A stretch of DNA of 64,000 nt from a virus, in IMG/VR virus record IMGVR_UViG_3300042922_000265, positions 64,001 to 128,000 of that record; one strand, written 5' to 3'. Positions 1,999-44,453 of this stretch are shown one piece after another (position 1 is the stretch's first letter; each line of letters begins with the position of its first letter). The notes below the pieces were generated by a model, which saw nothing but the letters and a program-made list of their open reading frames with translations, was not told the origin of the DNA and did not search any database. Both the position numbers and the translations under genes were made by a program.

Positions 1999-4313
1999 TA
2001 CTTACCACCTCCCAGGAACGGTGCGGAGTGGTTGAAATTCGGATCACCGGGACTTGGGCTGTTCATGGTGCCCGTGCCGTATCCGGCGTTGACGCCGCGC
2101 TGCTGGCCGGTCAGGGTGACCGAGGCCGGTGCGGTAACGCGACCGTTCTGGTCGACCACGATGCGCACCTCGCCCTGAACGTTGCCCTCGGTGCGGATAC
2201 GGGTGTCAGCCATCTCTTTGCCGGTAGCTGGTGGCGGTGCCGAACGCCGCTGTGCGTCGGCCAAGATGTCCTCCGGGCTGGCGAAGTACTTGCCCACCTG
2301 GTCACCGAAGTTGGTGAAGTTACGACCGGCGGCCTTGAGCGAGTCCCAGGAGCCGCTGAGGTTACCGCTGAGTAGCTTTCCTCCGGCGGCCAGCAGGTTG
2401 CCGGGAGACTTTAGGGGCGAAAACAGGTTGCCTACCTGCTCGCCGATGGTGCCAGGGTCTGCAGCAGCCTGCGCGCGGCGCGACGAGGCGCGCCCGGTGG
2501 GGTTACCCTCCTCGACCAGCGACTTGTACAGCTCGTGGGCATCATCCCAGGAGCCCAGAGACACACCCATGGACTCACAGATCAGCATGAACTGCTCGGT
2601 GCCCAGCACCAGGTCGCCCTTGGAACTGTCGGAGGCTTGCTTGGCGAATCGACCCAGGGTTTTCCAGTAGGCGTCGCCGATGTCGATACCCTGCTGCTGC
2701 ATGCGGGCCGGGACCATGCGGGGGCTGTAGACGTCCTTGACGCCATTAGTCACAGCCATCTGCATCAGGAAGTCCGGGTTCTGCATCGCGCCCTGGGCGG
2801 TGGCCGGGACGATGTTCTTGAGCTGCTGGTTGTCGCTGAACGCCTCGTTGATCGCGTTGGTCGCCTGGGTCAGCGACTCGCCTTCCAGACCCATGCCCTG
2901 CAGGACCTTGGTGGTGTTCTGGTAGGCCGAGTTGCGCTCCTCCTGGCTCATCGCGTTGCCCTCGGTGCGGGTCAGGTCCTTGAGCATGCTCATCTGCGAA
3001 GCGAAGTCCTCGACCGACAAGCCGCCCTTCTCCACGGTGGTGCGGAAGAGATCCATGCTCTGGCTGGAGGTCATGTTCATCTCTTTGAGGTTCTCGGCCA
3101 TCATCTTGGAGACGGTGTCGAACTCCTGGCCGGTGTAGCCGTTACGCAGGGCCGACTGCATGATCGACCGCGACTGCTCCAGCGAGATGAACGGGTTGAT
3201 GGCCATCATCCGGGCCTGCATCTCATAGCCGAAGCCCTCTGCGGCTCCGCCACCGGATGCCGATCCGAGGTTGCGGTAATCCTGGATCTGCTCGCCCGCG
3301 TTCTGGACGAACTTGTTACCCGCCACGGCGGTACCCAGAGCCAGCCCGGCCAGGCCCGCGCCCTTGGCGATACCGCCCCAAGCGCCGAATCCACCACCGC
3401 CGCCATCTCCGGTGCCTCCTCCGCCACCGCCTCCTCCGCCGCCACCACCGTGGCCGCCGATGCGCCCGATCGCGCCGAGGGTCGCTGCTGCGCCCGCCAT
3501 CATGCCGCCGCCAGCACCACGGGTGCCGCTGCGAACCTCATTGAGGACCGAGGACGCCGTGCTGCCCGCCGTGGCCAGATGCTGTTGCCAGGCCGGGGCG
3601 TCCGGGTGCGGAGTGGCCGGTTCGTTCTGCTTCTCGCTGGTGGTCGGCTGGCCGCTGTTAGTCGGGTCGGGCGGGGCCGAGGATGCGCGCTGGGCCTGAG
3701 TGGCCTGTGGAGACGTCGATGCTGCCGTGGGGGCACCCTGCCCCATCCCGCCGCCGGTACCGCCGGAGACACCCTGCTGGGCCGCCAGCTGGCCGCCTAC
3801 AAGACCGAGCTGGGCCGGATTGACGTACCCCCCACGCTGGGCCGCCATGTTGGCGAACGTGCGCGGGTCGCTCTGCATCATCTGCTGCATGTAGCTGGTC
3901 ATCTGGGCCTGGCCCATACCGATGCCGGTTCCGGGCATGCCAGCAAACGGGTCCATGTAGCCCGACGGGGCGGCTGTGGAGTAGGTGCCACCACCGGGCT
4001 GCCCACCCATCGGTGCGCCACTCATGCCGACGTTGGAGTGACCGCCCAATTCCTGCTGGATGTAGCTCATCCGCTCCAGCTGGGTGATCATGTTGCGATA
4101 CGCCTGGTTGGCTTGCTCGATGATCGCCGGAAGGCTCTGCAGGTACCCCTGCCAGTCGCCGCTGGCCCGCGCCATGGCCTCTTGCTCGACCCGGATGTTG
4201 GCCACCCGCTCGCGGACCTGGTCCAGATCGTTGAGGGTGGATGCCGGGACGTCGACAGAGATCCTCGCGACGACCGAATCGTCGCGGTACTCGAAATTGT
4301 CTGGAGTGGTCAT
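1998..4313 (-). CDS. Tape measure protein
   Basis: 771 aa, Ala/Gly/Gln-rich and helical, directly follows the frameshifted chaperone. Confidence 0.8.
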   Translation of the reverse strand: MTTPDNFEYRDDSVVARISVDVPASTLNDLDQVRERVANIRVEQEAMARASGDWQGYLQSLPAIIEQANQAYRNMITQLERMSYIQQELGGHSNVGMSGAPMGGQPGGGTYSTAAPSGYMDPFAGMPGTGIGMGQAQMTSYMQQMMQSDPRTFANMAAQRGGYVNPAQLGLVGGQLAAQQGVSGGTGGGMGQGAPTAASTSPQATQAQRASSAPPDPTNSGQPTTSEKQNEPATPHPDAPAWQQHLATAGSTASSVLNEVRSGTRGAGGGMMAGAAATLGAIGRIGGHGGGGGGGGGGGGTGDGGGGGFGAWGGIAKGAGLAGLALGTAVAGNKFVQNAGEQIQDYRNLGSASGGGAAEGFGYEMQARMMAINPFISLEQSRSIMQSALRNGYTGQEFDTVSKMMAENLKEMNMTSSQSMDLFRTTVEKGGLSVEDFASQMSMLKDLTRTEGNAMSQEERNSAYQNTTKVLQGMGLEGESLTQATNAINEAFSDNQQLKNIVPATAQGAMQNPDFLMQMAVTNGVKDVYSPRMVPARMQQQGIDIGDAYWKTLGRFAKQASDSSKGDLVLGTEQFMLICESMGVSLGSWDDAHELYKSLVEEGNPTGRASSRRAQAAADPGTIGEQVGNLFSPLKSPGNLLAAGGKLLSGNLSGSWDSLKAAGRNFTNFGDQVGKYFASPEDILADAQRRSAPPPATGKEMADTRIRTEGNVQGEVRIVVDQNGRVTAPASVTLTGQQRGVNAGYGTGTMNSPSPGDPNFNHSAPFLGGGK

Positions 4314-15909: not shown

Positions 15910-16413
15910 TCAGAACACCGTGGCGATGAAGGTGATGGGGTCGTCGGTGGAGATGCGGCAAATATCATTGCTCAGCATCTCGACGTGGAAATCGGTGTAT
16001 TCGGTCTGGCCGTCCAGAGAGAACAGCGCAACGGCCACCGGACCAGAGCGGGCGTGCTTGTGCTCGATGGTGGTGACGGTCTGGGGGGTGTTCTGCACAT
16101 GGACGTGCGGGGTCGCGGTGCCACCACTGCCTGGCTGAGGCAGGGTCTGAATCGGATAGGCGAAATCAGGATCGGCGGCCACAATGACGTCGCCGCGCTC
16201 CCAGACGCGCTCGAACCCGGAGGACTTGGCCACGGTCCAGGGCAGAGGCTGTTCATCGCCCACGTTGCCCTTGGCGGCCAGCAACCAGCGGATGCGGCCC
16301 ATGTTGAAGGTGATGGGCTGGCGCGTCAGGTTGCGTGCAAAGAGATCGGGGCGCGGCGCATAGCCGAACGGGTCAAGCTCGACCTCGTCCAGGCTCACGA
16401 AATTTGTCGACAT
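15910..16413 (-). CDS. Hypothetical structural protein
   Basis: 167-aa ORF with GGAGG RBS and late-promoter motif. Confidence 0.6.
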   Translation of the reverse strand: MSTNFVSLDEVELDPFGYAPRPDLFARNLTRQPITFNMGRIRWLLAAKGNVGDEQPLPWTVAKSSGFERVWERGDVIVAADPDFAYPIQTLPQPGSGGTATPHVHVQNTPQTVTTIEHKHARSGPVAVALFSLDGQTEYTDFHVEMLSNDICRISTDDPITFIATVF

Positions 16414-38139: not shown

Positions 38140-41100
38140 CTACTTGAACTGGGGCTTGACCCAGTTGCCCTTGTCGTCGCGTTTTGCCCAGTCCTTGGGC
38201 GGCTGCTTGCCCGGCGTGGTAACTGGCGGCTCCTTCGGGCCTTCCTCGTAGCCCTTGTTGTCGTCGTCGCTGTAGACGGTCCAGTCCGCAAAGAAGTCGC
38301 GGCTGGCCTGCTTCTGTGGGCAGTGATGGACGTTGGGGTCCCACAGCATGGCGTCGCAAGCCGAGCAGAACTTCTCCCCGTTGCGGGTCACCACGTTGTG
38401 GTCATCGTCGCCGTAGTCCGCACCGATGCGAGAGAACGCACCCTGCTGTGCGCCCTGGTCGGCGTACGGCCAGTGGCCAAAGCTGGCCGTCTTGGAGGTC
38501 TCCATGTCGGTCTCACCGGGGGCGTGCGGTGTCGGCGCACTGTCCAGCTCGTCGTCGGCGAAGAAGTCGATGTCCTCGGCGTAGTCCTGGAACGGTCCGT
38601 CACCGGACTCGTTGTTGGACTCCTCGGTATCAGCCTCGAACTGCCGGTTGGCCATGATCACGTTCTCGCGGACCGGGATCTCGCGAGCCAGGAACATCTG
38701 CGCTTCCTCGCCGCTGGCCAGGTGCTGGCCGGTGCCGATTGCGTAGGTGTACCAGAGCTTGCCGCAGCGGCACATACCGTGGCTCGGTGGCAGATGAGAC
38801 TGACCGCACGGGCAATGGAACGCCTGACGGATATGGCTCACGTAGCCATTGAGGTGATCGTCGAACTCCCACCCGGCCACCTTGGGCTGGAAGACGCTGG
38901 CCGTCTTCGGGTGCGGCTCCAGGCCCAGGGTCTCATGCAGCTTGTCTTGGGCGCGCGGGCCGACCTTCTTGTTCTGGAGGAACTGGTCGACCTCGCCCTC
39001 GCCGCCGATGTCCAGACCCTGCTCGCCACGGCGCTTGTCGTAGCGCTGGTAGTCCTCGACTACGCCCGAGGTCTTGGCCTTGGGCAGATCGTTGACGTCC
39101 ATGTTGTCGCTGAACTGCGGCTTCTCGCTGTGTCCGGGGAACTCGAATGCATCCATCGAGTCGCCGCCGCTGGGGGGCTTCCATGTCTCACCCCCCGTCC
39201 GGGTGGTGTTACTGGCGAAAGGGTGGCGGCTCCCCATGTGGACGGCGTCCACACCCATCGGCACGCCCGCGCTGGCCATGAACTGGCCCGCGTTGAACCG
39301 GACGTTGTCCTGGCCGAACATGTCGGCCAGCGACGCGGCGATGCCCATCCGGTGCTCCGGCGGCAGGCTCTGGATGGCCTCGGCGACATGCTGGTAGTGC
39401 TTGCGGCTCATGGCCTCCAGCAGCATGTTGTAGCCGTTGACGCTCAGGTCGTAGTGACGCGCGATCTTGAGGGCGTGACCGGCCAGAGCGAGCTGACGGC
39501 TGGCTTCCTTCTTCTCGCTGGAGCCCGAGTCGCTGCCGCCGCCCGAGGACTCACCGCCTCCGGCGGGAGCCGCAGGTGCTGCCGGGGCTGGCGGTGCCAT
39601 ACCGGCCTGCTGCGACGCGGCGGCTGCCGGGTCCACAGCGCTCTGCGGACTGACGTCCACGGTGCCTTCCGGCGGGGTGACGTCCAGCGGATTGGCGGCC
39701 TGCTCGACCGACCGCGCGAACTCGATCGCCTGAACCGCCTGCTGCAGCGGGTCGATGATCATCTGGTATTCCTGCGTCTTCTGGTCAACCAGCTGCGTGA
39801 CAGCCTGGCCAGCCTGATCCAGCAGGGCACCGTTGTCTACACCAGGTGTAGTCGGAGCGGCAGGCGGAGCCGATGGGTCCGGGGCCGCTCCTGGTGCGGC
39901 AGGGGCAGCCGGGGCCGGAGCGGCGGCGGCGGGCTGCTCACCAAAAGACTGCTTGCGCCGTCCCATGTGCGGCGGAGGTCCACCAGGACCTGACGACGGC
40001 CCTTGTGGGGCACCTCCGGCGCTTTCCATCAGGATCTGCTCCAGGGTGCCCGGAGGCAGGCCCAGCGCGTCCTCGATCTGCTCTACAGCCACCAGTTCGG
40101 TATCCGGCGGTAGGGCTCCTGCGGCGTCGGGAGCGTATTCCTCGACTCCCGAGAAGTCATCCTGAGCCAGCGGCGGAGCGTCTGACAGATCCGGCGGTCC
40201 CGGAGGTGCTTGCGGGTCGCCGGGCGGTGGCCCAGCAGGATCGCCGCCGTCTTCAGGACCGAGATCAGGTGGCCCAGGCGGAGCTTCAGGATCACCAGCC
40301 GGTCCCGCATCGTCCGCCGGAGGGCCGGGTGCCTCTTCAGGCGCATCCGAAGGCGGGCCATCTTCACCCCCATCCGAGAACGGGTTCTCCGACGAACCGC
40401 CACTGTCACTGTCTGACGAGTCGCCATCGTTGCTCTCGGTGTCGTCGGACTCCGACTCGCCGCCCTTCTCAGCCGCGCCCGACGGCGGTCCGTCGCTGTC
40501 GGTGTCGCTGCCCTCAGGACCGTCGGTGTCCTTGTCGTCCGAGCCGCTGCTGGACTCGCTGTCGTGGCTGTCCGACGAGTCATCGTCGTCGCAGTCGCAG
40601 TTCTCGTCGGCCTGGCGAATCAGGTTCGCGAGCATGAAGTAGGTGGAGTCGTCGATGCCGGTGTCGGCATAGTGGTTCAGGGTGGACAGCTTGGCCACGC
40701 GCAGACCGTTGTCGCTGGCGAAGTCCTTGTACAGCTCCACGGCCAGACGGCGCGCTTCCCGGTGAGTTCCGGTGTCGCCACCCTCGCTGAAATTGCGCTC
40801 GACCTTCTCTGGTCCGCCCTGGTCCACCGAGTCCAGGTAGGCGTCGAAGTTGCCCTCCGGGATCAGGTCACCGTCGTCGAAGTCCTCGGCCAGCAGCTGG
40901 CGCGCGGCGTGGCGCGGGTCCTTGTGCTTGGGGACGTTGGGGTCCTTGTTCTTGCCCTCGGCATCTGAGCCGTCCCCGGTGTTGGTCTCGACCTCATCGG
41001 TGACCGACTTGTCGCCGTCCTGGACTTTCTTGTACTGGGAATCGGAGATGGTGCGGCTGTCGCCGTCGCCATCATCCTTCGGCTTCTTGGTGGGGTCGTC

Positions 41101-41397
41101 GGAGTTGTCCTCGCCCAGGGTGGCCACGAACTCACGCTTCATCGCGTTGTGAACGCGGCGCATGACTCCGGTGTTGGGGAAGGCTCCGGCAGCCTCGATG
41201 GTCTTGCGGATGTCCGCCTTGGCGTGGTGCCAGCGGTCCTCGAACTCGTCCTTGCCGGTGCTGCCCATGAGGAACGGTCCGTAATCGTCCCGGACGTTCT
41301 GGACTGCGGTGGCCAGTCGGGTGGCTGCCACCCGTGCCTGCCGCTGTGGTGCCTGCTGGGCGTCTACATCCGCCTCAAACAGCCCGAAGTCACTCAT
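38140..41397 (-). CDS. Large acidic low-complexity head-associated protein with Zn-ribbon motifs
   Basis: 1085 aa. CPCG..CRCG and CSAC..HHC. Late-promoter motif upstream. Confidence 0.65.
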   Translation of the reverse strand: MSDFGLFEADVDAQQAPQRQARVAATRLATAVQNVRDDYGPFLMGSTGKDEFEDRWHHAKADIRKTIEAAGAFPNTGVMRRVHNAMKREFVATLGEDNSDDPTKKPKDDGDGDSRTISDSQYKKVQDGDKSVTDEVETNTGDGSDAEGKNKDPNVPKHKDPRHAARQLLAEDFDDGDLIPEGNFDAYLDSVDQGGPEKVERNFSEGGDTGTHREARRLAVELYKDFASDNGLRVAKLSTLNHYADTGIDDSTYFMLANLIRQADENCDCDDDDSSDSHDSESSSGSDDKDTDGPEGSDTDSDGPPSGAAEKGGESESDDTESNDGDSSDSDSGGSSENPFSDGGEDGPPSDAPEEAPGPPADDAGPAGDPEAPPGPPDLGPEDGGDPAGPPPGDPQAPPGPPDLSDAPPLAQDDFSGVEEYAPDAAGALPPDTELVAVEQIEDALGLPPGTLEQILMESAGGAPQGPSSGPGGPPPHMGRRKQSFGEQPAAAAPAPAAPAAPGAAPDPSAPPAAPTTPGVDNGALLDQAGQAVTQLVDQKTQEYQMIIDPLQQAVQAIEFARSVEQAANPLDVTPPEGTVDVSPQSAVDPAAAASQQAGMAPPAPAAPAAPAGGGESSGGGSDSGSSEKKEASRQLALAGHALKIARHYDLSVNGYNMLLEAMSRKHYQHVAEAIQSLPPEHRMGIAASLADMFGQDNVRFNAGQFMASAGVPMGVDAVHMGSRHPFASNTTRTGGETWKPPSGGDSMDAFEFPGHSEKPQFSDNMDVNDLPKAKTSGVVEDYQRYDKRRGEQGLDIGGEGEVDQFLQNKKVGPRAQDKLHETLGLEPHPKTASVFQPKVAGWEFDDHLNGYVSHIRQAFHCPCGQSHLPPSHGMCRCGKLWYTYAIGTGQHLASGEEAQMFLAREIPVRENVIMANRQFEADTEESNNESGDGPFQDYAEDIDFFADDELDSAPTPHAPGETDMETSKTASFGHWPYADQGAQQGAFSRIGADYGDDDHNVVTRNGEKFCSACDAMLWDPNVHHCPQKQASRDFFADWTVYSDDDNKGYEEGPKEPPVTTPGKQPPKDWAKRDDKGNWVKPQFK

Positions 41398-41426
41398 TCC
41401 CTGCTCACTCCCAGTTGAAGGTGTTC

Positions 41427-41461
41427 TACACCTTCTGGAAGCTGCTGCAGGTTTCTACAGG
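41427..41461 (-). promoter_or_regulatory. Putative late promoter
   Basis: CCTGT-N22-AAGGTGTA. Confidence 0.65.
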
Positions 41462-41462
41462 T

Positions 41463-41582
41463 TGGCTGGCCCTCCCCCGTTACAGGGGACCTCCCTCGCG
41501 CTCTCTCGACGGTCTATGCGCACTACTCCGTCGGTGCCCCGCTCAGTTCGCCACCGTCAGTTGCAACATCGGGTGGAGGCCA
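41463..41582 (-). ncRNA. Structured 120-nt tRNA-like RNA ending in GCCA
   Basis: Closing stem TGGCCT/GGGCCA, T-arm-like TCCCC/GGGGA, internal stems CCACC/GGTGG and CGACGG/CCGTCG. Confidence 0.5.
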
Positions 41583-41584
41583 TG

Positions 41585-41655
41585 CGGCCCATCCCGGAGT
41601 CGAACCGGGCTATCGCTGGGGTTAGAAGCCAGCTAGGTCGCCAGACCAATGAGCC
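41585..41655 (-). tRNA. Atypical tRNA with CUA anticodon (amber suppressor / Pyl-like)
   Basis: Acceptor GGCTCAT/ATGGGCC, 4-nt D loop, GCTGG-CTT[CTA]ACC-CCAGC, canonical TTCGA T arm. Confidence 0.7.
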
Positions 41656-41656
41656 T

Positions 41657-41690
41657 TGGTGCTGCGGGTGGGTTTGACGCCACCCGCAAC
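41657..41690 (-). ncRNA. CCA-ended minihelix 1
   Basis: GTTGCGGGTGG-CGTCAAAC-CCACCCGCAGC-ACCA. Confidence 0.7.
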
Positions 41691-41691
41691 G

Positions 41692-41753
41692 CGCCCGAGC
41701 GAGGCTTTGAACCTCTACACTCTCGCGCCTCCGAAGAGGTGCACGTCTCGGGC
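41692..41753 (-). ncRNA. Truncated tRNA-like RNA (acceptor plus T arm, UUCG hairpin, no anticodon)
   Basis: GCCCGAG/CTCGGGC, GAGG-TTCAAAG-CCTC, CCTC-TTCG-GAGG. Confidence 0.6.
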
Positions 41754-41754
41754 C

Positions 41755-41788
41755 TGGTGCTGCGGGTGGCCGTTAAGCCACCCGCAAC
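41755..41788 (-). ncRNA. CCA-ended minihelix 2
   Basis: GTTGCGGGTGG-CTTAACGG-CCACCCGCAGC-ACCA. Confidence 0.7.
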
Positions 41789-41789
41789 G

Positions 41790-41894
41790 TGACCGGGGAG
41801 GGAATCGAACCCAACCCCTTTCCCGGTTGCCCTGCTCTGGTGAGCGCTCACCTCGGCGATCTTCCCGGTTCCGGTGCTCCTATTGCACCCGGCC
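41790..41894 (-). ncRNA. Enlarged tRNA-like RNA (105 nt)
   Basis: Acceptor GGCCGGG/CCCGGTC, GGG-TTCGATT-CCC T arm, D-like TGC/GCA hairpin, expanded centre containing GGTGAGCGCTCACC. Confidence 0.55.
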
Positions 41895-41895
41895 T

Positions 41896-41929
41896 TGGTG
41901 CCCCCGGTGGCTTTTACCCCACCGGGGAC
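41896..41929 (-). ncRNA. CCA-ended minihelix 3
   Basis: GTCCCCGGTGG-GGTAAAAG-CCACCGGGGGC-ACCA, with compensatory changes relative to copies 1 and 2. Confidence 0.7.
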
Positions 41930-41934
41930 AGGTC

Positions 41935-42297
41935 TTACATGGTGAAGGCGTTGCGTAGGCACAGCGGGTAGCTGGCGCAGAGCGCGGACGCTTTCTCTCC
42001 AGGTTCGATGGCGATAGCCGTGAACTCGTCACCGAGATCCGGTTCGACCACCTTGGAGACGACGAGATTGTGTCCCATGCTGGCCTCGGCGGCCAGAGTC
42101 AGGAGTTCGTTCTCGTCATTGACGTTGACGATCACGATGAAGTTGGACGTGCGAATCCACTCGCGCGTAACTTCGGGGTGCTCGTCGTAGAACTGAAAGG
42201 CTGCGTGACACGCCTGAGCGGTCTGCAAGCCTGGGGGGATGTCAGCCCGAACTGCGATGTACAGCTTGTCCATCAGTTCGCGGGGCTTCTCATTCAT
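41935..42297 (-). CDS. Peptidyl-tRNA hydrolase (Pth2 family, divergent)
   Basis: VRADIPPGLQTAQACHAA...DENEL...EPDL..TAIAIEP. Confidence 0.75.
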   Translation of the reverse strand: MNEKPRELMDKLYIAVRADIPPGLQTAQACHAAFQFYDEHPEVTREWIRTSNFIVIVNVNDENELLTLAAEASMGHNLVVSKVVEPDLGDEFTAIAIEPGEKASALCASYPLCLRNAFTM

Positions 42298-42309
42298 CTA
42301 CACCCCATC

Positions 42310-42340
42310 ACTGTAGCACATAGGATCATCGGCCTGTCAA
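42310..42340 (-). promoter_or_regulatory. SigA-like promoter for the Pth2 / RNA array unit
   Basis: TTGACA-N19-TACAGT with TG extension. A second TGC-TATAGT lies about 40 nt upstream. Confidence 0.55.
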
Positions 42341-42378
42341 CCATACTGACCACTATAGCATCTCTACAGGGTTTAGAG

Positions 42379-42460
42379 TAGCCGAAGTGGGACTCGAACC
42401 CACACGTCCGAAGACACGGCATTTTGAGTACCGCGCGTCTACCAGTTTCGCCATTCGGCC
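42379..42460 (-). tRNA. tRNA-Leu(CAA)
   Basis: Full cloverleaf, CGGTA-CT[CAA]AA-TGCCG, long variable arm, no encoded CCA. Confidence 0.92.
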
Positions 42461-42503
42461 ATCAGCTCGTCATCTCCGGCCTGCAGTCCTCGGATGACTC
42501 ACG

Positions 42504-42577
42504 TGCCCCTGGGGAGACTCGAACTCCCAACCACACGGGTTTAAACCGTGCCGCTCTACCAATTGGCGTACGAGGGC
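42504..42577 (-). tRNA. tRNA-Leu(TAA), short variable loop
   Basis: CACGG-TT[TAA]AC-CCGTG, TTCGAGT T loop. Confidence 0.88.
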
Positions 42578-42582
42578 CTACG

Positions 42583-42655
42583 TACTCCGAGCGGGACTCG
42601 AACCCGCACTGGGTGGCCTCTCAGACCACTGCCTCTGCCATTGGGCTACCGGAGC
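42583..42655 (-). tRNA. tRNA-Leu(GAG), short variable loop
   Basis: GTGGT-CT[GAG]AG-GCCAC. Confidence 0.88.
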
Positions 42656-42660
42656 TTACG

Positions 42661-42746
42661 TACCTGGAGAGGGACTCGAACCCTCACGACCGTCAAAGGC
42701 CACTGGATTCTGAGTCCAGCGCGTCTACCAATTCCACCACCCAGGC
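42661..42746 (-). tRNA. tRNA-Leu(CAG)
   Basis: CTGGA-CT[CAG]AA-TCCAG, long variable arm. Confidence 0.92.
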
Positions 42747-42774
42747 ATAGGTGCTGCTCTATTCAGTTGTCACG

Positions 42775-42857
42775 CGGAAGGTAGAGGAATCGAACCCCCA
42801 GGAATCACCCCGCCCCGGTATTCGACGCCGGTTGCCGACCATTCAGCGGTACCCTCC
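42775..42857 (-). tRNA. tRNA-Ser(CGA)
   Basis: GGAGGGT/ACCTTCC-G acceptor, GT[CGA]AT loop, long variable arm. Confidence 0.85.
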
Positions 42858-42869
42858 AAGGTTACTGCG

Positions 42870-42952
42870 CGGAAGGCGGGAGACTTGAACTCCACGGGGG
42901 TTAGTCCGTATCGGTTTAGCAAACCGACTGCATCACCTGATGCTCACCCTCC
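42870..42952 (-). tRNA. tRNA-Ser(GCT)
   Basis: TCGGT-TT[GCT]AA-ACCGA, G73 discriminator. Confidence 0.88.
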
Positions 42953-43034
42953 ATAGCGAGGGCGAACGCCCTCAACCTACGAAAGTCGTAGGGAGGATGA
43001 CAAACTCAGGCGTGTGAACATGGGATTGACTGTA

Positions 43035-44453
43035 TCAGAAGCTGTCGCGGCGGGTCAAGGGCCGCTTGGCACGCCAGTCCTCGTCACGCTGCTGGGCTAG
43101 CGGGCGGGCAACCTCCGACTCGGCGAAGGCCCGACCTTCGTCGCTCAAGTTCGGGCTGTGGTGCAGGTCAGGCTCGATGTTGTCGGTCACGTGATCAAAC
43201 ATCGCGGTGCCAACACCACGGCGCTGCCAATCCGGGTGGACTCGTAGGTCCCAGATCTCACCCTTCTTGCGCGGGTGATCGCCGATCCACTGCATGTGGC
43301 CGACCATCTGGTCACCGACGTGCGCCGAGATCGCAGGAAAGGCACCGGGGTCGACCTTCTCGCTGGGCTGGATCACGTCGGGAAAGGGGGCGGCTCCAAG
43401 CGGGTGGTGCTGAAAGGTCAGCCCCTCCGGGTACGGACCGTTGAGACCAGCCATCTGGAGAACCCTATGGCCACGTTCGGCCTTCGGACGGATGTCGACC
43501 ATCTCGCCGATGCCGTATTTGTCATGGGTGACGATCCCGTCATGTCCCTTGGCGATCAGGGCGTCAGAAAGAGCTTGGCCGGTCGCGCCGCCATGGGCCT
43601 GACTCAGATCATGCTTCCAGTTGCCATCGTTGTGCGGCATGTACAGCGGGTTCTCGAAACTGACATTGCCGCGCTCCCACCCAGGGTGGGGCGTACCCGT
43701 GGCGTACTGGCCATCGGACATGTACCGGCCCCACGGCTCGACCTTCTGGGCATAGTCATCAGGACCGGCCCACTGTCGCACGCCGCCGTTGTTGCGGATG
43801 TAGGGCATCGTCACGGCGGCAGTCCGATGAGCGTTCAGGACCATGTCGTTGGGCACGTGCTCGGGATGGTTCGGCGACCAGCGGATGTCCCAGGGAACGT
43901 CAGGGTGGTGCCCACGCCACTTCTTCGGCCACGGGCTGCCCTGCAGGGCTGCAGTGCGGTTCTGTGCCCTCTGGTCAGCCACCTGGAGGTAGGGCTTCAT
44001 CTCGGCCTCATTCTGACCAGTGTAGGGGACATGGGCGGGCGTGTACTGCTTCACCGCCGTCCATCCCCAGTCCGCCGGGTTGTCCTCGGCCTTGGTGACG
44101 TGCTGGTCACCAGGATCGTGGTAATCCGGGTCAGACTGTGCCCAGGCGCGACCGGCGCTGGAGAAGTGATTGGAGTGCCGGATCGGGTAGCTGGCCTCGT
44201 AGGTGGCCGGATCGGACTGTGCGTGCTTGAGCATGGCGCTGGCCACGCCCATCCGCTGGAAGTCCGGGTGCACGGTGATGGAATCGATCTCACCGTGCGG
44301 GTGCCAGTGCAGGTGGCCCAGAGGACGCCCATCCTGGGCGTGCCGCGCCATGATGCCGTTGGACCAGTGTGTGTCGAACGGCTCGAACGTCAGCGGTGGC
44401 AGGTCACCGTTTGCTCCAGCGGTGACGACTCCCCAGAGCCCCCAGGTGTCCAT
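43035..44453 (-). CDS. Polyvalent protein: GNAT, ADP-ribosyltransferase-like, GNAT
   Basis: Two motif-A copies (VHPDFQRMGVA, VHPDWQRRGVG) around a central FENPL...GHDGIV segment. Confidence 0.7.
   Translation of the reverse strand: MDTWGLWGVVTAGANGDLPPLTFEPFDTHWSNGIMARHAQDGRPLGHLHWHPHGEIDSITVHPDFQRMGVASAMLKHAQSDPATYEASYPIRHSNHFSSAGRAWAQSDPDYHDPGDQHVTKAEDNPADWGWTAVKQYTPAHVPYTGQNEAEMKPYLQVADQRAQNRTAALQGSPWPKKWRGHHPDVPWDIRWSPNHPEHVPNDMVLNAHRTAAVTMPYIRNNGGVRQWAGPDDYAQKVEPWGRYMSDGQYATGTPHPGWERGNVSFENPLYMPHNDGNWKHDLSQAHGGATGQALSDALIAKGHDGIVTHDKYGIGEMVDIRPKAERGHRVLQMAGLNGPYPEGLTFQHHPLGAAPFPDVIQPSEKVDPGAFPAISAHVGDQMVGHMQWIGDHPRKKGEIWDLRVHPDWQRRGVGTAMFDHVTDNIEPDLHHSPNLSDEGRAFAESEVARPLAQQRDEDWRAKRPLTRRDSF

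Follow-up and report, generated by a model that had tools for sequence, protein, structure and literature searches.

A likely amber-gated Pth2-like gene followed by a conserved array of CCA-ended tRNA mimics in a relative of the Myrna-type mycobacteriophages

We analysed a stretch of viral DNA of 64,000 nucleotides (nt), positions 64,001 to 128,000 of the IMG/VR record IMGVR_UViG_3300042922_000265 and referred to hereafter as the window, in which a gene for a Pth2-like protein is followed by a row of short elements that resemble tRNAs or only their acceptor ends. The window is part of a 167-kb phage genome that is about 73% identical over the array region to Phabba, Myrna and ScoobyDoobyDoo, which are Myrna-type mycobacteriophages of subcluster C2. 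ARAGORN reports 35 tRNA genes in this genome, which has two tRNA regions, and the array lies in the smaller one beside leucine and serine tRNAs. An earlier note on this DNA had described a Pth2 gene with a minus-strand row of seven RNA elements beginning 5 nt past its stop codon, and every one of these elements is present. The sizes given there for three of them (105, 62 and 120 nt) and the junctions of 1-2 nt were slightly off; we measured 106, 63 and 121 nt, and the junctions between array elements are 0-2 nt long. The features are listed below in window positions, and all elements of the array are on the minus strand.

42310..42340, minus strand: SigA-type promoter, with -35 TTGACA at 42340..42335, a 19-nt spacer and an extended -10 TGcTACAGT, the -10 hexamer being at 42315..42310
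42298..42303, minus strand: start-amber pair (the putative gate), GTG at 42303..42301 and in-frame TAG at 42300..42298, 6 nt past the -10
41935..42297, minus strand: Pth2-like open reading frame (ORF), annotated as 120 amino acids (aa), 122 codons if counted from GTG-TAG, stop codon TAA
41930..41934, minus strand: 5-nt spacer GACCT between the Pth2 stop codon and the first RNA element
41896..41929, minus strand: minihelix m1, 11-bp stem, loop GGUAAAAG, ACCA
41789..41894, minus strand: TL1, a 106-nt tRNA-like RNA without an anticodon loop, ending in AC directly 5' of m2
41755..41788, minus strand: minihelix m2, stem GUUGCGGGUGG/CCACCCGCAGC, ACCA
41691..41753, minus strand: TL2, a 63-nt tRNA-like RNA without anticodon and D arm, ending in GC before m3
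41657..41690, minus strand: minihelix m3, same stem as m2, loop CGUCAAAC, ACCA
41584..41655, minus strand: tRNA(CUA), the predicted amber reader, called by ARAGORN, with G73, a C31.C39 mismatch and a 4-nt D loop
41463..41583, minus strand: R120, a 121-nt structured RNA with a 6-bp closing stem, a hairpin at the T-arm position (loop UGUAAC) and a 3' GCCA
41454..41460, minus strand: CTGTAGA motif, which marks the next transcription unit (that of a 1085-aa ORF) and hence the downstream boundary of the array

Minihelices m1-m3 are each 34 nt long and are made up of an 11-bp stem, an 8-nt loop and ACCA. When the whole genome was scanned for ACCA preceded by a hairpin of 9 bp or more, 11 matches were obtained, among which m1-m3 were the sole clustered clean stems of at least 11 bp; shuffled genomes gave about two weak matches each. 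Phabba, Myrna and ScoobyDoobyDoo carry minihelices at the same places with different stems, and metagenomic relatives add more. In the nine distinct minihelices compared across relatives, all 99 stem cells are standard pairs, and two-sided (compensatory) changes are present at 8 of the 11 stem positions. The length is 34 nt in all but one, which has 35 nt. G1-C72 and A73-CCA are invariant, U2.G71 is found in eight of the nine, and the 3:70 pair is C-G or U-A, with no G3.U70. The consensus of the nine loops is GGUCAAAG. Longer elements occupy the minihelix positions in Bxz1-type (subcluster C1) phages such as I3 and Catera; in these, an acceptor stem of 7 bp is combined with a variable hairpin, the T arm GGAGG-UUCGAnn-CCUCC and ACCA. 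Since they stand at the same positions and their 3' strands are similar to those of the minihelices, we take the minihelix to be a reduced version that retains just the acceptor/T helix and the CCA.

The encoded CCA sets the minihelices apart from the tRNA genes of the phage. As had been noted for the normal tRNAs nearby, nearly all 35 tRNA genes stop at N73-C74 without a full CCA, whereas the minihelices encode the full ACCA. About two-thirds of the tRNA genes continue with a G after N73-C74, often as ACGT (in the window, the tRNAs at 42378..42952), and this partial-CCA junction may be a 3'-processing signal. TL1 and TL2 end in AC|G and GC|G respectively, the same junction as in the true tRNA genes. 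None of the phage's tRNA genes shares its acceptor stem with a minihelix. In a pattern scan of bacterial contigs for the 3' strand of the m2/m3 acceptor, the matches listed were 80 non-tRNA sites and one tRNA-Leu from Patescibacteria, a result that is uninformative for mycobacteria.

The larger elements are also structured. TL1 is composed of an acceptor stem, a D-like hairpin, a long central arm with a GUGAGCGCUCAC hairpin and a T arm with UUCGAUU. It belongs to a conserved family of about 106 nt, with members at loci L011, L013 and L014, in which the GUGAGCGCUCAC hairpin recurs and the pairs of the acceptor and the long arm are kept by compensatory changes; its only Rfam match is a weak one to the tRNA-Sec model (17.7 bits). 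TL2 consists of a 7-bp acceptor, a UUCG-capped hairpin and a T arm GAGG-UUCAAAG-CCUC, and relatives of this type are found in Phabba and Myrna, where they end in ACCA, and in ScoobyDoobyDoo, where the end is GCCA. Alignment of R120 with Phabba gave 30 pairs, eight of them kept by two-sided changes that include a complete flip of the 3' hairpin; R120 is absent from Myrna and ScoobyDoobyDoo. Neither the minihelices nor TL1, TL2 or R120 match the canonical tRNA model (RF00005) at the Rfam gathering threshold, and no known RNA family (tmRNA, YrlA or others) was matched in the array by Rfam or ARAGORN. ARAGORN found no tmRNA anywhere in the 167-kb genome, and Rfam gave no tmRNA match.

To put a number on the array as a whole, closed 7-bp stems followed by NCCA were counted in 18 regions that run from a Pth2 stop codon to a CUA tRNA. 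These regions contain 41 such elements, which tile head to tail at 0-1 nt apart, compared to 3.5 ± 1.8 in shuffled sequence (200 Markov-chain shuffles that kept dinucleotide frequencies; maximum 9 elements), a 12-fold excess. The pairing, the covariation and the excess over shuffles argue that these are selected RNA structures, and the array is almost certainly a structured RNA under selection. It is very improbable that we are looking at decaying tRNA genes, chance hairpins, a hidden coding region or terminators. Pseudogenes do occur in phage tRNA clusters, and an ORF of 109 aa (41633..41962, minus strand) overlaps the array. However, neither decay nor chance fits perfect pairing with compensatory changes at near-constant length, chance does not fit the excess over shuffles, and decay does not fit a full CCA that is present in the minihelices and absent from the true tRNA genes. 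A protein-coding reading was rejected, as the ORFs across the array differ in strand and frame between relatives, and a search of the array for terminator-like or T-tract sites found none. The proposal of the earlier note that this is a dedicated tRNA-mimic system has therefore held up, in the sense that covariation, the count of 41 elements against 3.5 and the linkage described below point to a selected, conserved module tied to this Pth2 clade. The two observations from sequence that the earlier note had named as fatal to it were looked for, and what was found is that the structures are conserved in relatives and that no protein-coding ORF across the array is.

The ORF at the head of the array matches Pfam family PF01981 over residues 11-103 (40.7 bits against a cut-off of 23, E = 3e-10), and a profile built from 15 relatives matches solved Pth2 chains (E = 5e-11). 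An AlphaFold model based on the 15 relatives had a predicted local distance difference test score (pLDDT) of 93.4 and a predicted template modelling score (pTM) of 0.86. The top 14 Foldseek matches to this model were all Pth2 or Pth2-fold proteins (2zv3, 1q7s, 3erj, 1wn2, 1rlk, 1xty and 1rzw), the best with template modelling (TM) scores of 0.66-0.73 at about 25% identity, and nothing else was convincing. Residues R17, D19, Q28 and H31 and an acidic block, E85-P86-D87, are conserved in the clade.

The start of this ORF is unusual. Its promoter, TTGACA-N19-TACAGT (42340..42310), has both hexamers conserved in Phabba, Myrna and ScoobyDoobyDoo with a spacer that varies, and promoters of the same type precede the phage's two other tRNA clusters. 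The SigA-like promoter that the earlier note had placed here thus stands on its conserved hexamers, although a consensus scan that allowed spacers of 16-18 nt made no call, the spacer being 19 nt. In the window, the triplets GTG-TAG-ATG begin 6 nt past the -10 hexamer and the TAG is in frame with the Pth2 ORF. Because this distance between -10 and start is the usual one, the 5' end of the mRNA is predicted to lie on the GTG, giving a leaderless message whose second codon is amber.

The same arrangement, ATG, GTG or TTG followed by an in-frame TAG ahead of Pth2, was found in 20 relatives in addition to the window. Three are Myrna-type (Phabba, Myrna and ScoobyDoobyDoo, all GTG-TAG-GTG), four are Bxz1-type (I3, Catera, BadAgartude and Cane17, all ATG-TAG-GTG) and 13 are metagenomic loci in which any of the three start codons precedes the TAG. 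The geometry TTGAC-N16-19-(-10)-N6-7-start is kept in all of these gated loci but one. Across loci, the length between the TAG and a conserved KLY(I/V)AVR motif differs by whole codons only. In 10 of the 13 metagenomic loci the codon after the TAG is GTA, GTT, ATC, CTG or GGC, none of which is a start codon, and these loci contain no other start codon ahead of the KLY(I/V)AVR motif, suggesting that read-through from the first codon is the sole way into the ORF. Codon 3 encodes valine in 16 loci and is written GTG, GTA or GTT, which is the pattern of a translated codon and not of an initiation codon. Among the gated loci checked, the Pth2 stop codon is TAA or TGA, never TAG.

The early TAG at codon 2 matches the anticodon of the tRNA(CUA) encoded 0.6 kb downstream on the same strand, and the same is true in relatives. 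The earlier note had taken this tRNA as one more member of the array; it is indeed present, but its link to the GTG/ATG-TAG start of Pth2 had been missed. Downstream of Pth2, a CUA tRNA is present in the cultured relatives and, by ARAGORN, in 12 of the metagenomic loci; three more were recognized by eye. The one in the window is atypical, with its 4-nt D loop and C31.C39 mismatch, and falls below the Rfam threshold; it scores 25 bits on the best Rfam model of the clan, compared to 31-68 bits on RF00005 for the CUA tRNAs of relatives. The C31.C39 mismatch is found in most cluster C CUA tRNAs and makes for an anticodon loop of effectively 9 nt. No amino-acid identity could be assigned to the tRNA(CUA), as across relatives the discriminators are a mixture of A, G and U and the acceptor stems differ. 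The suppressor linked to Pth2 at locus L021 (1090-1168) has an anticodon loop of 8 nt, CCCCUAAU, for which ARAGORN gives 'ccta', and the gate consists of the in-frame triplets GTG-TAG-CTG. Quadruplet decoding was considered and rejected, since the ORF is in triplet frame with ATG-TAG, and this holds even at L021 with its enlarged loop.

Genome-wide recoding of TAG (code 15) was ruled out. TAG terminates 52 of the 188 crude genes of the phage, and apart from Pth2, no gene in the genome has a TAG that immediately follows a start codon and immediately precedes the ORF. Back-up stops downstream of the TAG-ending genes were not enriched (p = 0.16). The lack of recoding together with the lack of an excess of back-up stops suggests that the suppressor is probably weak or context-dependent. 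Two loci carry an ochre suppressor, tRNA(UUA), after Pth2 (L022 2436-2508 and L009 2905-2981); both have ordinary Shine-Dalgarno starts for Pth2, no early stop and no clear CCA mimics. The Pth2 start was also ordinary at one low-G+C locus. Two metagenome contigs of 28% G+C (L026 and L028) have an in-frame stop mid-way through the matched Pth2-homologous frame, which could be another gate or an alternative code. In our judgement the amber gate is very probably real, and because start-TAG occurs in about 20 relatives, most of them without another usable start codon, the tRNA(CUA) of the array is most likely the key that permits translation of Pth2.

How widely the cassette is distributed was assessed in two ways. 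By tblastn, this Pth2 is found in 213 phage records, nearly all of them cluster C mycobacteriophages, and a profile scan of metagenome contigs gave 20 further Pth2 loci with 36-68% identity and 28-67% G+C. Wherever the sequence from Pth2 to the CUA tRNA was readable in a gated locus, one or more CCA mimics were present in it. The m1 position is that of the first element after Pth2 in all gated relatives, and this first element always starts 5-15 nt past the Pth2 stop behind an AGAC-type spacer; the spacer pattern stop-(A)AGAC(N)T(T)|G is seen again in relatives whose protein is as little as 44% identical. The number of mimics ranges from one to six in metagenomic relatives, with very different acceptor stems, and in the minimal cassettes L020 and L023 a single element stands between Pth2 and tRNA(CUA). 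In the most divergent arrangement (L010, a distant AT-rich huge phage with 38% identity) the TAG is at codon 4, and a 37-nt element of stem plus ACCA begins 6 nt past the Pth2 stop, with no tRNA within 2.5 kb. The presence of the element without a nearby tRNA indicates that it is tied to the Pth2 gene or to its mRNA.

The genes that flank the cassette vary from locus to locus and include PPE, Band_7, an RlaP nucleotidyltransferase, HNH, a sigma factor and DHFR. Given these unrelated flanks, the cassette appears to be autonomous, with the Pth2-like protein as its only constant protein partner; a conserved partner among the neighbouring genes was sought and rejected, as the neighbours differ between loci. 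At L017, a gene for an RlaP-family 'RNA repair pathway' nucleotidyltransferase (2993-3874, minus strand) lies about 0.6 kb downstream of the Pth2 cassette. No other neighbour has an obvious connection to tRNA ends, and this one is not conserved elsewhere.

Several observations concern the surroundings of the array in the window. Many minus-strand genes have a motif, (C)CCTGTAGA/T, about 40-60 nt ahead of their start codon, often with a TATAGT-like hexamer after it; examples on the minus strand of the window are at 42369, 41460, 54227, 51023, 35241 and 20198, and others elsewhere are at 15967, 12413 and 8528 in genome coordinates. One copy closes the array and another is just upstream of the Pth2 promoter. 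In sequence it looks like a phage-specific promoter or leader motif. The ORF beyond the array (38140..41397, minus strand) encodes the 1085-aa protein, which is acidic and rich in proline and alanine and has no Pfam match; its leader of about 60 nt (41398..41460) contains a hairpin, CCAGAAGGU...ACCUUC..CUGG, that is conserved in four of four Myrna-type phages. On the other side, directly upstream of a tRNA cluster promoter (TTGACC-N18-TACAGT, 43058..43029), is a gene for a 472-aa protein with two GNAT acetyltransferase domains (43035..44453, minus strand), at the position of which relatives hold unrelated genes. Between tRNA-Ser(gct) and tRNA-Leu(cag) there is an extra tRNA-like gene (42776..42857, minus strand) that ARAGORN did not call; with the Rfam tRNA-Sec model its score is 29 bits. 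Its appearance is serine-like, with an enlarged anticodon loop; two tRNA-Ser genes are annotated here in Myrna.

As the best explanation of the whole, we tentatively propose a self-contained early operon with a gated Pth2 and mimics that act in trans. Transcription from the SigA-type promoter would yield a leaderless mRNA beginning GUG-UAG, and synthesis of the Pth2-like protein would depend on decoding of codon 2 by the tRNA(CUA) of the same operon; even a weak suppressor may have time to act on a ribosome that waits at the start-stop pair. Past the Pth2 stop, the RNA would be a row of abutting RNase P substrates. RNase P would cut at each G+1 to form the 5' end of one piece and, because the elements abut, the 3' end of the previous one, so that upstream pieces would end in (N)CCA with 0-1 nt extra, or in N73-C74, to which the CCA-adding enzyme would then supply the rest. 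The predicted products are the acceptor/T-arm minihelices m1-m3 (34 nt each), the anticodon-less TL1 and TL2 and the 121-nt GCCA RNA. Maturation by RNase P is probable. Hairpins built from an acceptor and a T stem are substrates of bacterial RNase P, which reads G+1/C+72, a 3' RCCA and a length of 12 bp (PMC11143913), and the minihelices have these determinants, with G1-C72 and ACCA in nine of nine and a helix of 11 bp plus a possible non-canonical closing pair.

The products could not decode and would instead act in trans through their common G1-C72 acceptor helix and A/G73-CCA, as pseudo-substrates or buffers, ligands of proteins that recognize the 3' end of tRNA. Among these the likeliest would be the co-encoded Pth2-like protein, which we favour since its family binds the tRNA 3' end. 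A role in trans is suggested by the one to six copies with diverse acceptor stems, the encoded CCA, the reduction to an acceptor/T helix and the conserved U2.G71, and that the mimics act with or for the Pth2-like protein is a possibility that we hold with some reserve. A fuller version is a three-part RNA-protein circuit in which a Pth2-fold protein works on tRNA 3' ends, the mimics, as its pseudo-substrates or partners, buffer or direct it in the manner of the RNA antitoxins of type III toxin-antitoxin systems, and the codon-2 amber gate delays it until the suppressor tRNA at the far end, and hence the mimics that precede it, have been transcribed, processed and charged. The phage might in this way take over or protect the tRNA pool of the host. 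This circuit is a speculative extension and in its full form rather improbable.

Several findings weigh against the proposed operon. The lysine of the G-K motif that precedes AAQxxHA in solved Pth2 aligns to Leu24, a position occupied in the clade by L, A, M, P, S or I. This lysine is reportedly catalytic in the Sulfolobus Pth2 enzyme. Its absence makes the chemistry of the Pth2-like protein uncertain, and the product, as modelled, is a Pth2-fold protein of uncertain chemistry. The link between mimics and protein rests on gene adjacency. For 28% of phage genes TAG serves as an ordinary stop, without adaptation in the form of back-up stops, and a strong suppressor would be costly. The TAG is directly followed by ATG or GTG, either of them a start codon, in the window and in the phages of Bxz1 and Myrna type, making it possible that initiation in the window and the cultured relatives takes place just after the TAG on a 6-nt leader. 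Finally, the invariant features of the minihelices are exactly those that RNase P needs, so that selection for cleavage alone might account for them. This last point leads to a different function, cis punctuation, in which the mimics would be RNase P entry sites and the released pieces would have no function of their own; the cuts would separate the Pth2 mRNA from tRNA(CUA), give the neighbours exact ends and/or leave a stable CCA-terminated 3' end on the mRNA. There is precedent in the t-elements that define mRNA ends (PMC1920247). The fixed placement of the first element behind its spacer, kept even in L010, the single-element cassettes L020 and L023, and the fact that TL1 and TL2, which lack a CCA, each abut a minihelix whose 5' cleavage would form their 3' end are all in keeping with it. 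Nevertheless, one element would suffice for this purpose, yet arrays reach 4-6 elements with diverse acceptor stems; the phage makes its other ~30 tRNAs without such helpers; and the conserved U2.G71 and the T-loop-like loop motif would be left unexplained. We consider cis punctuation somewhat less likely than a role in trans with the Pth2-like protein, and the main rival to it.

Two further functions, both put forward in the earlier note, would have the mimics act in trans in other ways. Aminoacylated mimics might serve as puromycin-like peptide acceptors or as amino-acid donors that Pth2 recycles. The acceptor end with A73-CCA is tRNA-like, and some synthetases do charge minihelices, but the lack of G3.U70 or any other known anticodon-independent identity set, the highly variable acceptor stems and the absence of any sign of charging in the sequence make this very unlikely indeed. 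Alternatively, CCA mimics might be anti-defence decoys that absorb MenT/AbiEii, toxSAS and GNAT toxins while Pth2 clears blocked aminoacyl- or peptidyl-tRNAs. In vitro, the toxSAS FaRel2 efficiently modifies a bare minihelix (bioRxiv 10.1101/2024.07.05.602228), MenT toxins of mycobacteria act on tRNA acceptor ends (PMC7450476, PMC10435456), phage PTH2 has been proposed to function in ribosome rescue after tRNA attack (PMC7824862), and many different acceptor stems would suit a panel of decoys. The minihelix stems are, however, unlike those of the phage's own tRNAs, and almost no bacterial tRNA with the m2/m3 acceptor was among the matches listed, although this is a weak test. In addition, tRNA(CUA) itself would be among the victims of a toxin that disables CCA ends, and Pth2 would then no longer be made, which would be strange for a counter-measure. 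We regard decoys as improbable.

The array has partial counterparts among known systems. Acceptor/T-arm minihelices used in the laboratory as substrates of RNase P, synthetases, CCA-adding enzyme and toxSAS share the coaxial helix of about 12 bp with its loop, G+1/C+72 and the discriminator-CCA; they are constructs, whereas those described here are natural genes that covary, are arrayed with other mimics behind a Pth2-like gene and have the 8-nt loop GGUCAAAG in place of the canonical 7-nt T loop. The species 1 and 2 RNAs of phage T4 (rnaC and rnaD) are non-decoding RNAs of about 120-140 nt with tRNA-like ends and no known function that are co-transcribed and co-processed with tRNAs. They resemble the array RNAs in their tRNA-cluster setting, and only R120 is similar in size; to our knowledge they are linked neither to Pth2 nor to a suppressor tRNA, and a 34-nt minihelix is not known among them. 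Type III toxin-antitoxin systems (ToxIN) likewise have a small protein gene beside a tandem array of short processed RNAs that could bind the protein, but the RNAs of the present array differ from one another instead of forming identical repeats, are tRNA-shaped and lie 3' rather than 5' of the protein gene.

Phages with code 15 also have a tRNA(CUA), and in prfB autoregulation an in-frame UGA controls synthesis of a translation factor. In contrast to both, the genome here is not recoded, the stop is codon 2 of a predicted leaderless mRNA and its reader is in the same operon. Plant mitochondrial t-elements and MALAT1 mascRNA are tRNA-like structures whose cleavage by RNase P/Z ends the neighbouring RNA (PMC1920247), but they are single and need no encoded CCA, unlike the elements described here, which encode a CCA, differ in their acceptor stems and abut one another in rows of up to six. 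The tRNA-like domain (TLD) of tmRNA, including the TLD-only RNA of mycobacteriophage DS6A that was proposed to titrate SmpB (PMC4131195), shares an acceptor stem and T arm without an anticodon arm, but the array has no G3.U70, and its T-arm and acceptor sequences are unrelated. It has been reported that cluster C tRNA arrays hold a PTH2-like gene (PMC5966550), that jumbo phages carry PTH2, perhaps for ribosome rescue (PMC7824862), and that phage suppressor tRNAs are often without known targets (PMC5852040). Our literature searches turned up no report of CCA minihelices as natural genes, of arrays of mimics behind a phage Pth2 or of an amber-gated Pth2, in agreement with the earlier note, whose author knew of no account of this arrangement; nor did they find an RNA-seq paper for cluster C.

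Taken as a whole, the architecture of the cassette is strongly supported, the gate is likely and the role of the mimics is an unproven proposal. If the proposal is true, 'orphan' phage suppressor tRNAs would gain a natural target, one gated gene in genomes with a standard code, and the acceptor/T-arm minihelix, so far a laboratory construct, would be a conserved natural gene. The absence of the lysine in this clade raises a concrete question about the role of phage Pth2-like proteins. The cassette would be a compact and mobile device for translation control that is present in more than 200 sequenced cluster C mycobacteriophages, among them Bxz1, I3, Catera and Myrna, and since cluster C phages grow on M. 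smegmatis mc2 155, the predictions are open to standard phage genetics.

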